In this document: in pieces, positions 52,601-58,600 of the stretch
Position numbering within the stretch: the first letter of the stretch is position 1
Layout: each line of letters starts with the position of its first letter
Source: Escherichia coli
GTDB taxonomy: Bacteria; Pseudomonadota; Gammaproteobacteria; Enterobacterales; Enterobacteriaceae
Reading direction: 5' to 3' (one strand)
Assembly (NCBI RefSeq): GCF_044324875.1
Contig: NZ_CP172185.1
Length of the DNA stretch: 64,000 nt
Program-made: the position numbers

Positions 52601-55600
52601 GATATCTATGGACAGAAAATTATAGATGAGTTTCATGATGTTGGAGTAAATACAGATTATGTGATTTTCAATAATCAAATGCTTACACCGCTGGCATCTA
52701 TACTAGTGAATCAATTAAATGGTTCAAGAACGATTATAACACGCAAACAGAATTATCCCCCACGAATGACATTTGAAGAAAAGCTGAAAATAGATGAATT
52801 GATTACACATCTGACATATGATGATAAAAAGGAAGTTATTACAATATTAATTGACGGCCATGAACCTGAGTTGAGTGAATATATTATACAGCGAATGCCA
52901 GATGCCCGAGTCGTGATGGACGCAGGCTCTCTTCGGGAGAGTAATTTAAATCTGGCTAAATACACAGACTATCTGGTTGCCAGTGAAAACTTTGCCTGTG
53001 AACTATCTGGAATTGAAAAATTTACATCTGATATACAGTTAAACGAAGCTTTAACAGAACTTAATAAATTGTCCCGAGGTCAGCCCTTTATTACTCTTGG
53101 TGAGAGAGGATGTGCATATCTGAAGAATGGAATACCTACAATATCACCAGCTTTTATTTGTAATGCAATCGATACAACAGGTGCCGGTGATGTTTTTCAT
53201 GGTGCTTTTACGTATGGTGTTCATTACAACTGGCATATTGATAATATTATTTTGTTTGCCAGTCTGGCTGCAGCTATTTCTGTTGAAAAAAAAGGTGTCC
53301 GCGAATCCATACCTGATTTAGCTGATGTCCATAATGCTATAAATCAATATGAAAGAAGTAGAGAAAAATACTTTACTTCATTTTAAGTTATACACAAGCA
53401 AGAGGAAATATGATGTTAGTTTCTATAGAGAATATGCTTAATCGTGCCCTTGTACATCAGTACGCAGTTGGTCAGTTTAATATCAATAACCTGGAGTGGA
53501 CAGGTACTGTGTTAAATGTTGCACAAAAATTACGTTCTCCGGTTATTTTAGGCGTCTCCGGTGGCACTATAAAACATATGCTTGGGCTGAAATGTATTCA
53601 CGATATTGTTGTTAACGCAATGGAATTCCTGGAAATAGATGTGCCGGTGGCTTTACATCTTGATCACGGTCAGTCTTATGAGGCTTGTGAGGCGGCAATT
53701 AAAGCAGGTTTCAGCTCAGTAATGTTTGACGGTTCACATATGCCTTTTGCCGAAAATCTGGCAATAACAAAACGTCTGGTGAAGTATGCCCATCGTCGGG
53801 GAGTATCTGTGGAAGCAGAGCTAGGCACGATTGCAGGAAGTGAAGATGGCATTGTTAATTCCCGAGTGATTTATGCAGATCCTACAGAATGTAAGCAACT
53901 TGTTGAGGAGACAGGAGTGGATTGTCTGGCTGCAGCACTTGGTTCCACACATGGATTATATAAAGGAAAAGCAAAACTCGGTTTTGCGGAAATGGAACAT
54001 ATATCACAGTTGGTAAAAGTACCCCTGGTACTTCATGGGGGCACAGGTATTTCAGATACGGATATGAAAAAAGCTATTTCACTTGGCACAGCAAAAATCA
54101 ATGTTAATACCGAAAATATGTATGCGTGGTGTTTGTCAGTGAAAGAACAGTTTGAACATAAGGGGGAACATGATATTAATGATCCCCGAAAAGTTATTAC
54201 GAAAGGATTGCAGCCAGTTGCAGAACGAGTGGCAGAACGAATGAGCCTGTTCGGCTCTGTTGGACAGTCCCTCTGAACTGTTACAGTTTCCTGCAGGTCG
54301 TCATTCATTCAGGCAATCTGCAGGATTGAACTATATTAGACATCCAGGAATAATTCCCTTCCACAGGGGGCACGGAGGATTGAAATTGCACTGAATGGGG
54401 AATTTGTTAACGTCGCCCTTACCATGGTCAGGATTTCACGCCCTGTTACAAACACTCGTGTCAGTATTTCTTGGCCCTATTCAGTACTCCTCACTACCTG
54501 CCAACGACACCGCTAGGAAAAACGCCCGCGTGTAATAAAATAAATCAGCCATCGCAGGGCGCCGATCATTCGCATGCATCGCTGATGACGCGCCCAAACA
54601 AGCGTCAAGATGAGTTAACCTGAACAATTCGTTATAAGCCCGGTGCCTTCCACAAAGAAGTTGTCAACCCGTGATCGACCAAGCTCAACTGTTCCTGATA
54701 TACAGCCCGCCATTTTTCGAGCAATTCCTGATAAAGCTCATGTTTTCTTTTGTCCGGAACATGCTACCTTTCCCAGCTCACCAGGCATTCTCCCGTTTCG
54801 TCCATAGATGAGTAGATACCTGCCCCTACACCAGCAGCAATCGCACAGCCCAGTGCCGTTGCCTCTTTGACTACAGGAACATTAACTGGTAGCCCTGACA
54901 CATCAGCCAGAATCTGGCTCCAGAGTTCTCCTTTTGCACCACCTCCCGCAAATACCAGAGATGAAGGGTAAGCGTACAGCGAGGGCCGTATTGACGGGGA
55001 TGTGTTATTCAGCTGGCAGTGCTATGCGCCACGGAAGCAGTTCGCTGACCCGGTTGACCGGCCAGTCTGCTATGACGCCAAGCACATGGCGAAGGTAGCT
55101 TTCTGGATCCACGTCATTCAGTTTGCACGTCCCTATCAGGCTGTACAGTAGCGCTCCCCGCTCACCACCATGGCCAGAGCCGAAGAACAGGAAGTTTTTA
55201 CGACCCAGACTTACCGCCCGCAGGGCATTTTCAGCGATGTTGTTGTCGATTTCCACCCAGCCATCGTTCGCATAGTACGTCAGTGCCGGCCACTGGTTAA
55301 GTGCGTACGCGAACGCCTTCGCCAACTCTGAGTGTCGCGACAGGGTCTTCATCTTTTCACGCAACCAGCTTTCCAGGGATTTCAACAGCGGTTTCGTTTT
55401 TCGCTGACGTTCAGCAAGCCGCTGCTCTGCCGGCATTCCCCTTATATCCGCCTCTATGGCGTACAACTGACCGATCTGCTCCAGGGCTTCTTCCGTCAGT
55501 GCTGACGGGATGCGGACGTGCACATCGTGGATCTTTCGGCGGGCATGAGCCCAGCAGGCAGCTTCCGTTATCCCACCATTGCGATACAGCTCGTTGAACC

Positions 55601-58600
55601 CGGCGTACGCATCCGCTTGCAGCACACCGCTGAAGCAAGCAAGATGAGTCTGCGGATGGATGCCTTTTCTGTCCGGGCTGTAAGCGAACCACACTGCAGG
55701 TGCCAACGCTGACCCGGCATTGCGGTCATCACGAACATACGCCCACAACCGCCCGGTCTTCGTCTTCTTATTACCCGGCATCAGTACCTGGACCGGGGTA
55801 TCATCGGCATGGAGTTTGCCGTCAGTCATGACATAGCCATGAAGCGCCTCTTCCAGCGGAGACAGCAGCCGGCAGCATGCATCCACCCAGCCCGACAGCA
55901 GTGAACGGCTCAGCTCCACACCTTGCCGGCCGTATATTTCTGACTGGCGATACAGCGGGGTGTGCTCTGCATACTTCGAGGTCAGCACGCGGGCCAGCAG
56001 CCCCGGTCCGGCGATACCCCGCTCGATGGGCCGCGAAGGTGCAGGTGCCTGCACGATGGCATCGCACTGAGTACAGGCATGTTTTTCCCGTACCGTCCGG
56101 ATAACCCGGAAGGCGCTACGCATCAACTCCAGCTGTTCGGCGGTATCCTCGCCCAGATAGCTCAGTGAACCGCCGCAGTTCGGGCAGCACGGCGCCGCAG
56201 GCAACAGTCGCTTTTCGTCACGGGGTAGTGATTCAGGGAACGGCTTACGGATGCGGGTCTGACGCAACGGACGCTGTACTGCCGGGTCATACACCCTACC
56301 AGTCAGCGTATCGCTCTCTTTCTGAAGCCGGTTCAGATCGGCTTCCATTTGTGCGATACGGCGGGAGACTTTTTCGGAACGACTGCCGAAGTTCATCCGG
56401 CGGAGTTTATCCAGCTGCGCCTGCAGATGGTCTATTTCGCGCTCCCGGTTGCTCAGCTTTTCCTGCAGGGCGTGGATCAGCGCTTCCTGTTCGGCCAGGC
56501 GCTGTTTCAGCAGGAAGATGTCGTCAGAAGAGATGTCGTTCATAAGCCCGTATTTTACCGGGCTTATTCTGTGACAACCAGGATAAAGAGATTTACAGCA
56601 TGGTCAGGGAGGTCAGCAGCCGCTTAGGCTGTCGCCAGTCGATACCTTCCAGCAGCATCGCCAGCTGCGCCTGTGTAAGGAACACTTTGCCATCACGGGC
56701 TGACGGCCAGGCGAAGCGCCCACGCTCCAGCCGTTTGGTCAGGAGGCACAGTCCGTCACCGGTGGACCACAGCAGTTTAACCTGACTGCCGCTGCGGCCC
56801 CGGAAAATGAAAACATGGCCGGACATGGGATCGTCTTTCAGCGCCGTCTGTACTTTCGCAGCCAGGCCGTTGAAGCCATTTCTCATATCGGTGATACCGG
56901 CAACCAGCCAAATTTTGGTCCCGGAAGGTAAAGGGATCATCGCTTCAGTTCCTGTATCAGCAGAGTCAGGAGCTTTTCGCTGACATTGCCATTGAAGCGG
57001 AGCGTCCCGTGCCGGAACGTTACCTCACAGCTGATACTGAGGGTTTCCGGGTCCTCTGCGAGCGATTCTGGCTGTTCGGCAGCTGCATCGAGAGTCACAG
57101 GAAGTAGCTGGGGGCTCTCTGAAGAAGGTAATAGCAGCTTTCCCTCGCGCCATTGTTGTCGCCATTTGAACAACAGATTGGCGTTAATGCCATTTTCAAG
57201 AGCAAGTTTTGAGATGGATATCCCGGGTTCACAGGAGGCAGCAACGAGCTGCTGTTTAAATTCGGGAGGATAATTAGGGCAGCCTTTTCGCCTGCCGGGA
57301 GTCACATTTTTCTGCATATCTGACACTTTGGTTCCCACTACTTATTTGGTGGACACCACTTTGTCTAATTCGTCAGATTCTGACCAGACGGTTCAGGCTG
57401 TACGCTTACGATGAAGGATGGATCCCTGTAAAATCAGCAATCTGCGACAAATTACATGTTGAAACAATGGCTGCATTCTCTTCCAAGGCGCGAAACAAAG
57501 TTGCCTTATTACATTTTTCCGGATCGATCGACAGGTTTAGAAATGAAGGAGCCGCGTGGTACCAACTTTTGAAACGCATCCTGTCAGAGAATATCGGCAT
57601 CACTCCCCATGCTCCTGCTGGTACACGGGAAGCCATTTCCTCCAGTAGTGTATAAGTATCGACTCCCAGACTGCAAAATCGCATCGTGTTCGATCGCCGA
57701 TTCGCATCGCATCCCCTTACCCACAAGTTGAAATAGTAGTATTGTATTGATAAATCATAAATTTTTATGGAGGGGTTATGGATAACTGGATTACTCAGGA
57801 ATTCAAATCGCTGGATACAGGGTAAGCGGCTCGCCAGAACCGTATTGATATTTACTGAGAGGTCAGATCAACTTTCCAGGGCAACAGATCGCGTACCCGG
57901 TTTGCCGGCCAGTCCTGGATATGCTCAATAACGTAACGCAGCCATTTTTCTGGCTCCACATTGTTCAGACGGCATGTGCCGATCAGTGAGTACAACACCG
58001 CCGCATGTTCGCCACCGCTGTCGGAACCCGCGAAGAGCCAGTTTTTCCGGCCTACGGCCACTCCCCGTAAGGCGTTCTCTGCGATGTTGTTGTCGATTTC
58101 CGCCTGACCATTATGCAGTACACGTTCAGCGCATCCCACTGTTTCGGCAGGCATGCGAACGCTTTTACTGTATCCGGGTGACGCGACAGTGTTTTCATCT
58201 GTTGCTGTATCCAGTCATACTACGCCAGCATCATTGGTAGCACCTGGGCTTTTTTTGCCGCAGGCGCTGGTTCGCAGACTACTAAAATAATACGCGGTTT
58301 TTCATTTTACGGACGGGCAGCCAGAAGACACAGTTGAAATGCCACATTATACGATTCCTCAAAGGATTTTAGAGGTAGAAACTCAAATATGGAGTGAAAA
58401 TTATGTGCGCCAGTAAAAAAATTAGGCGTCAAAATTCCTCTGGCTGACAGAACTGCACCATCAGTTCCACCACGCATTGGTATCGGTTTTGGTGTAATTC
58501 CCAGCATATTCATGGACTCAAAGAGTAGATCTACAGCACGTCTGTCTTTGTTTAAAGCATTACTAATATTGCTGTAGATATCAGTGATCGTGAACTCAAC

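Follow-up and report, generated by a model that had tools for sequence, protein, structure and literature searches.

The lsrK remnant and its lesions

The Escherichia coli DNA analyzed here (64 kb of NZ_CP172185.1; the window) carries two minus-strand pieces of lsrK, a gene for the quorum-sensing (AI-2) kinase, with a complete ISEc8 between them, bordered on one side by a PTS-kinase-aldolase module and on the other by a stack of insertion sequence (IS) fragments (Table 1). Together the two pieces make up lsrK nucleotides 1004 to 1593, beginning partway through codon 335 and ending with the stop codon, or the final 590 of 1,593 nt; the description of the gene in the first-pass annotation as an internal-to-3′ portion is correct. 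Its coordinates are also good to within a few bases, the TAA stop codon (54632-54634, minus strand) ending at 54632 rather than 54633. The reference for these comparisons is the intact lsrK of a genomic island in E. coli AR_0085 (NZ_CP029741.1, AM464_RS15360/WP_053287828.1; 530 codons). Using the AR_0085 protein in tblastn, the 3′ piece matches LsrK residues 419 to 530 with 98% identity, and the internal piece, which spans codons 335 (partial) to 422, matches residues 336 to 422 with 100% identity; by blastn the internal piece is 98.5% identical to positions 14561-14822 of AR_0085 locus L001.

Table 1. Features in and around the lsrK remnant (window coordinates)
Feature	Coordinates	Strand	Basis or remark
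PTS IIA/IIB/IIC, PfkB-type sugar kinase and class II aldolase module	50220-54276	+	Adjoins lsrK in the intact island too
lsrK remnant, 3′ piece (gene nt 1258-1593)	54632-54967	-	tblastn vs AR_0085 LsrK
Premature stop TAG, lsrK codon 487 (E487)	54764-54766	-	Base-by-base comparison with AR_0085
Target-site duplication, left copy (gene nt 1258-1265)	54960-54967		GATGAAGG, directly flanks the IS
Complete ISEc8 (IS66 family), 2,442 bp	54968-57409	- (as lsrK)	Ends, length, identity
tnpC, IS66-family DDE transposase, 512 aa, intact ORF	55005-56543	-	NCBIfam NF033517, 457 bits (cutoff 180)
tnpB, IS66 accessory protein, 115 aa, intact ORF	56593-56940	-	NCBIfam NF033819, 120 bits (cutoff 50)
tnpA, IS66 accessory protein, 133-aa ORF	56937-57338	-	NCBIfam NF047595, 97 bits (cutoff 74)
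Target-site duplication, right copy	57410-57417		GATGAAGG, directly flanks the IS
lsrK remnant, internal piece (gene nt 1004-1265)	57410-57671	-	tblastn, blastn
IS21-family left-end (IRL) remnant, 38 bp	57672-57709	+	100% identity to LH50-c element end
IS4/Tn5-family element left end (terminal repeat and about 15 transposase codons)	57710-57821	+	81% identity
ISCro1-like IS66-family remnant, degraded	57822-58273	-	92.8% to ISCro1 in AR_0085 locus L001

The remnant differs from the AR_0085 allele at five positions, four of them synonymous and the fifth a GAG-to-TAG change at codon 487, where the intact island allele encodes Glu and K-12 has ACG (Thr). It appears as WER followed by a stop when the excised lsrK sequence is translated. 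This nonsense codon is newly found here, and had not been recorded in the first-pass annotation. After 5′ truncation, IS insertion, and the change to TAG, the remnant does not retain a continuous ORF that begins at a start codon.

We compared the translated excised remnant with the NCBIfam model NF008187, an equivalog for autoinducer-2 kinase of the FGGY carbohydrate kinase family, which has a curated cutoff of 528 bits and demands a full-length match. The remnant reaches 348 bits and aligns with no more than profile positions 327-521, compared with 967 bits for the intact island allele and 1001 bits for K-12 LsrK; because this score is below the cutoff and covers a partial profile, we regard the remnant as a fragment of an LsrK member, not a member itself. 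Of the two domains in the intact island protein, FGGY_N (PF00370) is absent and FGGY_C (PF02782) is represented only by profile positions 73-197.

A truncated product could in principle retain a role, either as a C-terminal FGGY fragment expressed from an outward promoter in an IS or as a regulatory RNA, and two ORFs do exist mechanically, one of 106 aa (57406-57726) and one of 45 aa (54764-54901). However, the 106-aa ORF begins with a TTG inside IS-derived sequence, the fragment is interrupted by an IS of 2.4 kb and terminated by the premature stop, and the first third of FGGY_C is missing along with the whole of FGGY_N. No Rfam family reaches its gathering score in 47000-62800, and the exact 92-, 106-, 76-, and 45-aa products are not on record in the public collection searched. 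Retained function is thus hardly credible, and the lsrK fragment probably yields no useful expressed product.

ISEc8 insertion into lsrK codons 420-422

The element within lsrK is 100% identical over all 2,442 bp to copies annotated in RefSeq as "IS66-like element ISEc8 family" in many E. coli, and what had been called ISEc8-like is thus ISEc8 itself. Its three ORFs are intact and score above their NCBIfam cutoffs, with those of tnpA and tnpB overlapping by 4 nt. The terminal inverted repeats (GTAAGCGTACAGC) are identical at 13 of 13 positions at the two ends, after which they degenerate, and they begin with GTAAGCG; this motif and a three-ORF organization are features of classic IS66 elements (PMC12888890). 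Of 5,426 complete E. coli genomes, 3,334 contain at least 80% of ISEc8; we found no further instance among the 5,426 of ISEc8 in lsrK codons 420-422. The perfect identity to other copies suggests that the insertion may be recent.

The 8-bp repeat reported earlier is GATGAAGG, and it stands at both junctions of the element, an agreement expected by chance at two fixed junctions with a probability of ∼1.5e-5. Target duplications of 8 bp are typical of the IS66 family (ISfinder family description). AR_0085 provides the empty site, in which GATGAAGG occurs once: window positions 49928-54967 correspond to L001 9527-14568 and positions 57410-57671 to L001 14561-14822, with the two matches overlapping by exactly 8 bp. 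When the IS and one copy of the duplication are removed in silico, which was one of the checks that the first-pass annotation had proposed, the lsrK frame is continuous. Because the flanks rejoin in frame, the outcome that it had named as counting against an interrupted lsrK does not arise.

Stacked IS ends at the 5′ break

The 5′ break in lsrK lies at 57671/57672 and is occupied by an IS21-family end, much as previously suspected, although its extent (57672-57709) is narrower than the ∼57665-57725 originally given. These 38 bp are 100% identical to the opening 38 bp of an IS21-family element in LH50-c and seven other genomes, where they start about 180 bp upstream of istA; in LH50-c a further two CGATC..GATTCGCAT repeats come between them and istA. 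The IS21 hallmarks of a terminal repeat starting with TG and reiterated short repeats of the kind lying upstream of istA are recognizable at 57672-57709, but istA and istB are missing; as only 38 bp survive and an IS4/Tn5-family end takes over at 57710, we classify this as a stub, not an element. Its IRL repeat architecture is shared with the complete ISSso4-family IS of the window. We considered the three complete ISSso4-family copies as the source of the stub, and rejected them because the architecture is related but the sequence is different. No second match to the stub occurs in the window at up to three mismatches.

The adjoining segment (57710-57821) is 81% identical to the 5′ end of a locus that occurs in 87 E. 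coli genomes and is annotated as "IS4/Tn5 family transposase DNA-binding protein"; it sits inserted in the IS21 end, and is itself cut. Beyond it, the degraded ISCro1-like remnant retains a terminal GTAAGCG and a C-terminal part of the transposase (NCBIfam IS66 profile positions 321-386). A flank apparently shared with plasmid H66 beside ISCro1-like ends was also considered, and proved to be only a loose target-site similarity. To the right, a module containing pepT and a peptide-binding-protein gene matches strain ECCNB12-2 from window position 58044 onward.

Among the 5,426 complete E. coli genomes searched, none extends across 57671/57672 or includes 80% or more of 54300-58300. A configuration absent from these genomes, in a region rich in the IS copies that make misassembly common, raises the question as to whether an assembler simply misplaced these elements. 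Nonetheless, the 8-bp duplication is perfect and lies at the exact IS ends, and excision restores the frame, which together indicate a real transposition rather than a collapsed repeat; the 5′ break, moreover, coincides exactly with the first base of the IS21-family terminal repeat. An assembly artifact is therefore extremely doubtful.

Searches with LsrR, LsrA, LsrC, LsrD, LsrB, LsrF, and LsrG (tblastn) gave zero further matches in the 64-kb window, in agreement with the earlier statement that no lsr transporter genes are nearby; the "orphan" label for lsrK is valid for the 64-kb window only. Linkage to lsrR and lsrACDBFG, which is present in the intact homologous island, is thus missing here within the window. 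A plausible question is whether the 5′ part of lsrK, lsrR, and lsrACDBFG survive elsewhere in the genome, having moved by inversion or translocation between IS copies, since the junction is made of IS ends, and the three identical ISSso4-family copies and several IS66-family pieces in the window could recombine. However, neither the roughly 54 kb on the left nor the 6 kb on the right contains any lsr sequence, and what borders the junction is a 38-bp stub of an IS21-family end, an IS type with no partner copy in the window; lsrK would be split and inactivated even if such a move had occurred. We consider relocation quite unlikely, and the missing lsr operon was probably deleted rather than moved.

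A rare accessory lsr operon as the source

In AR_0085 the island operon is intact and comprises lsrK, lsrR, lsrACDBFG, and an epimerase gene, adjoining the PTS, kinase, and fba genes. An intact operon beside this PTS-kinase-aldolase module is found in only 7 of the 5,426 complete E. coli genomes (AR_0085, PK8276, EF5-18-41, PKF11, PKF4, CS5L, and 23CRST013). At least three sequence types of lsrK are present in complete genomes: the native type, a type with ∼82% DNA identity (125 records), and the island type (7 genomes). Full-length island and K-12 lsrK are 74.5% identical in nucleotide sequence, with 84% of amino acids identical.

The fragment is unmistakably lsrK, and native E. coli lsr operons are often pseudogenized with ISs nearby, both of which might suggest that it is simply the decayed core-genome lsrK of the host, the locus described by Brito et al. 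(PMC3595036). However, over its surviving 590 nt it is 99.2% identical to the island allele and only 73.6% identical to the K-12 lsrK tail, and its downstream neighbor is the island aldolase/kinase/PTS module, as in AR_0085, whereas the neighbors of lsrK in K-12 are the yneO pseudogene and lsrR. Furthermore, the genome-wide lsr search proposed in the first-pass annotation, applied to relatives, gave a second lsrK match elsewhere in each of the seven genomes that carry the island operon intact. Derivation from the native gene is accordingly very improbable and, as judged by sequence comparison, the remnant is evidently a relic of a rare accessory, island-borne lsr operon, not of core E. coli lsrK.

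At the species level, the island Lsr proteins are closest to those of the Citrobacter amalonaticus group, with amino acid identities of 87-89% (LsrK), 93-95% (LsrB), and 89-92% (LsrC), compared with 83%, 86-87%, and 84-85%, respectively, for native-type Escherichia loci. As LsrK is still 11-13% diverged, the C. amalonaticus group is not the direct donor, and in its genomes, unlike in the island, the PTS-kinase-aldolase module does not adjoin lsrK. We found no plasmid in PLSDB with the PTS-kinase-aldolase/lsrK tail, and the island lsrK allele was not found on plasmids, the best matches in the plasmid collection being native-type with no more than 75% identity. A search of the open literature for a second or additional lsr operon found no description, with keyword matches reflecting unrelated uses of "LSR."

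Discussion

We consider it very likely that this locus is a nonfunctional relic of an accessory, horizontally acquired island lsrK bearing the lesions and the IS stack described above. The source would have been an accessory lsr operon (lsrK-lsrR/lsrACDBFG) on an E. coli-type genomic island, beside the PTS-kinase-aldolase module, and lsrK shows three independent lesions: truncation by the IS21 end, ISEc8 insertion, and the change of codon 487 to TAG. With the IS21-family end abutting gene nucleotide 1004, everything upstream is missing from the locus: lsrK codons 1-334 (and with them the N-terminal FGGY domain), lsrR, and the genes of the transporter. Intact ISEc8 transposed into codons 420-422, generating the 8-bp target duplication, and the IS21 end may later have been struck by the IS4/Tn5-family element, and that in turn by the ISCro1-like element. 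The resulting stack of IS stubs joins an AR_0085-type module on the left to the pepT/peptide-binding-protein module on the right. The order of these events is inferred, while the anatomy of the locus, the empty site, the continuity of the frame, and the identity of each IS piece are directly observed.

Taken alone, this locus is of little weight, since it adds a further pseudogene disrupted by ISs to those of IS-rich mosaic islands. It does offer a dated example of nested IS insertions at the junction of two island modules, and a caution for annotation, in that an E. coli "lsrK" match need not be the core locus. A broader interpretation, in which the relic is the trace of a lost second system for importing and processing AI-2, rare and of Citrobacter-like ancestry, with selection acting on AI-2 uptake dosage, is doubtful. 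If true, such a second system would be carried by some avian and human E. coli alongside native Lsr. If accessory lsr copies are gained and destroyed again and again, the "labile signal reception" described for the core locus would also apply to copies acquired horizontally, and the implication would be that AI-2 uptake dosage is under active selection and that the island is not simply decaying neutrally.

Compared with known ISEc8, the copy in lsrK has the same 2,442-bp length, GTAAGCG-type repeats, 8-bp duplication, and tnpA-tnpB-tnpC order, and the sole difference is its insertion site. Compared with the AR_0085-type island, it is the same lsrK allele, with PTS-kinase-aldolase neighbors at 99.1% identity; however, lsrK is whole in that island, whereas here only codons 335-530 remain, split by ISEc8 and carrying a nonsense codon, with the IS stubs and the pepT/peptide-binding-protein module in place of the remaining operon.

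Decay of the native lsr operon in E. coli and Shigella is well documented, with 34 lsr pseudogenes attributed to large truncations (76.5%), small indels (17.6%), and premature stops from point mutations (5.9%), with ISs flanking lsr operons that are still decaying, and with functional LsrK missing in 23 of 40 strains (Brito, Rocha, Xavier, and Gordo, 2013; PMC3595036). The same routes, IS-associated truncation and nonsense mutation, are seen here, and the remnant agrees with the known pattern that E. coli AI-2 reception genes are easily lost. The locus of Brito et al. is the ancestral core one, whereas the relic described here represents a second, accessory copy, about 25% diverged in DNA sequence. 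The lsrK relic is thus a case of ordinary IS-driven pseudogenization in an IS-rich mosaic island.

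ISEc8 insertion in lsrK

Sequence reading and scripted repeat location place the target duplication GATGAAGG directly against both ends of a 2,442-bp element, in agreement with the first-pass annotation, which had lsrK split by an IS66-family element of this length with an 8-bp repeat; duplications in the IS66 family are usually 8 bp long. The element termini are both GTAAGCGTACAGC (13/13 identical, with a partial match further in), the three ORFs are intact and score above the curated cutoffs of NCBIfam models (see table), and the full element is 100% identical to copies annotated in RefSeq as 'IS66-like element ISEc8 family'. 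Of 5,426 complete E. coli genomes, 3,334 contain 80% or more of the element, and because this copy is identical to those elsewhere, its insertion into lsrK is probably recent. In its three-ORF layout and GTAAGCG ends it resembles classic IS66 members, which have both (PMC12888890).

E. coli AR_0085 (NZ_CP029741.1) has the same PTS IIA/IIB/IIC, PfkB-type kinase, and class II aldolase genes, then an intact lsrK (530 codons) followed by lsrR, lsrA, lsrC, lsrD, lsrB, lsrF, lsrG, and an epimerase gene. Window positions 49928-54967 are 99.1% identical to 9527-14568 of this locus (L001), and 57410-57671 are 98.5% identical to 14561-14822; the two alignments have the 8 duplicated bases, and no others, in common, which is direct evidence of a simple ISEc8 insertion into lsrK codons 420-422.

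Removing ISEc8 and one duplication copy in silico gives an unbroken minus-strand frame, and the earlier interpretation, which hinged on the flanks joining in frame, therefore stands. The translated remnant aligns with positions 327-521 of 521 in the NCBIfam autoinducer-2 kinase equivalog (348 bits; cutoff, 528), and its Pfam matches are confined to FGGY_C, of which it retains the distal two thirds; FGGY_N is absent. Base-by-base comparison with the AR_0085 allele shows that it comprises gene nucleotides 1004-1593 with five differing positions; four are synonymous, and the fifth, which the first-pass annotation lacked, changes codon 487 from GAG to TAG (54764-54766). The first-pass start coordinate, 54633, is off by one base, as the lsrK stop codon ends at 54632. 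Three lesions inactivate the gene: its 5' part is cut off at an IS21 end, ISEc8 interrupts it, and codon 487 is a nonsense codon. The N-terminal FGGY domain is lost, and the fragment is presumably functionless. Look-ups of its possible exact products matched no recorded gene.

Features of the lsrK region and other parts of the window
Feature	Position	Strand	Remarks
IS21-family element, 2,641 bp	606-3246, 29134-31774, 62793-64000		istA + istB; three 100% identical copies; last exceeds window end
500-aa ORF	11668-13170
IS66-type C-terminal transposase fragment	47886-48206
Remaining sit region	48318-49603		sitA and ~45 sitB codons
sitA (sit iron/manganese transporter)	48689-49603	minus	only sit gene left besides the sitB codons
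~210-225-bp repeat	48341-48562, 54416-54625		73% identical to each other
Target duplication	54960-54967, 57410-57417
ISEc8 element	54968-57409		between duplication copies
IS66-family transposase ORF	55005-56543	minus	512 aa
IS66 TnpB ORF	56593-56940	minus	115 aa; 4-nt overlap with TnpA ORF
IS66 TnpA ORF	56937-57338	minus	133 aa
IS21-like terminal remnant	57672-57709
IS4/Tn5-family left end	from 57710		~15 transposase codons left
ISCro1-like IS66-family end	57822 to ~58273		truncated; GTAAGCGG...

Relationship to an accessory lsr operon

The island lsrK of AR_0085 and K-12 lsrK share 74.5% DNA and 84% protein identity, and identity of the remnant is 99.2% with the island allele and 73.6% with the K-12 lsrK tail. 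In a sensitive search of the 5,426 complete genomes, island lsrK was present at ≥99% in seven, all of which also match lsrK at another chromosomal position. In 125 more records the lsrK type is 81.6% identical to the island gene, most of those listed showing two lsrK places; 4,120 others match best at 60-80%, a range that includes the K-12 gene, and 1,174 gave no match to island lsrK. By allele identity and genome distribution, the relic derives from an accessory lsr operon that is rare, and the core locus is not its source. No fewer than three sequence types of lsrK occur among complete E. coli genomes: the native type (60-80% band), the 81.6% type, and the island type (L001 14233-23776 and six other genomes). 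A keyword search of the open literature found no relevant description of an accessory or second lsr operon.

The flank at 52400-54967 is present in only 8 of the 5,426 genomes, with no match in a plasmid search. As first reported, the remnant lies away from lsr transporter genes: when the full set of island Lsr proteins was searched against the 64 kb by tblastn, LsrK alone matched, over residues 336-422 and 419-530. The rest of the operon was probably lost by deletion and not relocated.

Among species-representative genomes, the Citrobacter amalonaticus group has the closest relatives of the island Lsr proteins (amino acid identities: LsrK, 87-89%; LsrB, 93-95%; LsrC, 89-92%), compared with 83%, 86-87%, and 84-85%, respectively, for native-type Escherichia. 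Unlike in AR_0085, the PTS-kinase-aldolase module does not adjoin lsrK in these Citrobacter genomes.

The 5' break

Homology to lsrK ends at 57671, and the adjoining 38 bp, TGCAAAATCGCATCGTGTTCGATCGCCGATTCGCATCG, occur once in the window and match eight other E. coli genomes at 100%. In LH50-c an IS21-family istA lies beyond the counterpart, after a further two CGATC..GATTCGCAT repeats. The complete IS21-family element of the window has an IRL built on the same plan, though its sequence differs. This context and the shared architecture bear out the earlier description of an IS21-like terminal-motif remnant. Beyond it are an IS4/Tn5-family end and an ISCro1-like end; 87 genomes, O104:H4 among them, have a locus annotated 'IS4/Tn5 family transposase DNA-binding protein' whose start is 81% identical to the former. 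From 58044 rightwards, the window is 98.7% identical to strain ECCNB12-2, where the common stretch (pepT, a DppA-like binding protein, and a glutaredoxin-domain gene) is in another island. The lsrK stub therefore lies where AR_0085-type and ECCNB12-2-type modules join, via stacked nested IS ends. These stubs are probably older than the ISEc8 insertion.

The IS4/Tn5 left end lies within an IS21 terminal repeat at a homologous spot in the window (57672-57821) and in O104:H4 (L007 2440-2640), the shared sequence being ..TTCGCATC[G/T], the junction, and CAT[C/A]CCCTTACCCACAAG. Either the composite is old and diverged by ~19%, or the element prefers IS21 terminal repeats as targets. A loose motif, ..ATTACT-CAGG-ATTCA-A--GCTG-ATA.., stands just outside the GTAAGCG of three ISCro1-like ends (window 57700-57830 and 136-296; locus L006 2911-3071), and may reflect a target-site preference of such elements.

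Other features of the window

One repeat copy lies between the aldolase and lsrK stop codons, and the other replaces sitB after ~45 codons; repeat and IS-like sequence that includes the IS66-type fragment has taken the place of the rest of the sit locus. The unannotated repeat core (~100 bp, 54520-54626) occurs in ~1,000 of the 5,426 genomes, at one to six places each. The CFSAN061770 match to the PTS-kinase-aldolase module stops at 54415, immediately before the repeat, which therefore seems to mark island-module boundaries. Close copies of the IS21-family element are named 'ISSso4 family' in RefSeq (full-length in 225 of the 5,426 genomes), and the copy at 606 cuts an ISCro1-like remnant (258-607) 94.6% identical to 57822-58170. 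The 500-aa ORF, suspected of being istA until a profile search ruled this out, has a weak, sub-threshold likeness to phosphoethanolamine transferases (CptA/EptA) and scores far below the cutoff of MCR-type models.

Decay of lsrK

The split, truncated remnant is confirmed and its original interpretation supported, with three refinements: assignment to an accessory island copy, an extra nonsense codon, and the position at a junction of nested IS stubs. The relic represents ordinary IS-driven pseudogenisation. Its truncation, premature stop, and nearby ISs resemble decay of the native lsr locus as described by Brito et al., in which large truncations predominate with some premature stops, ISs flank decaying operons, and 23 of 40 strains lack functional LsrK (PMC3595036).
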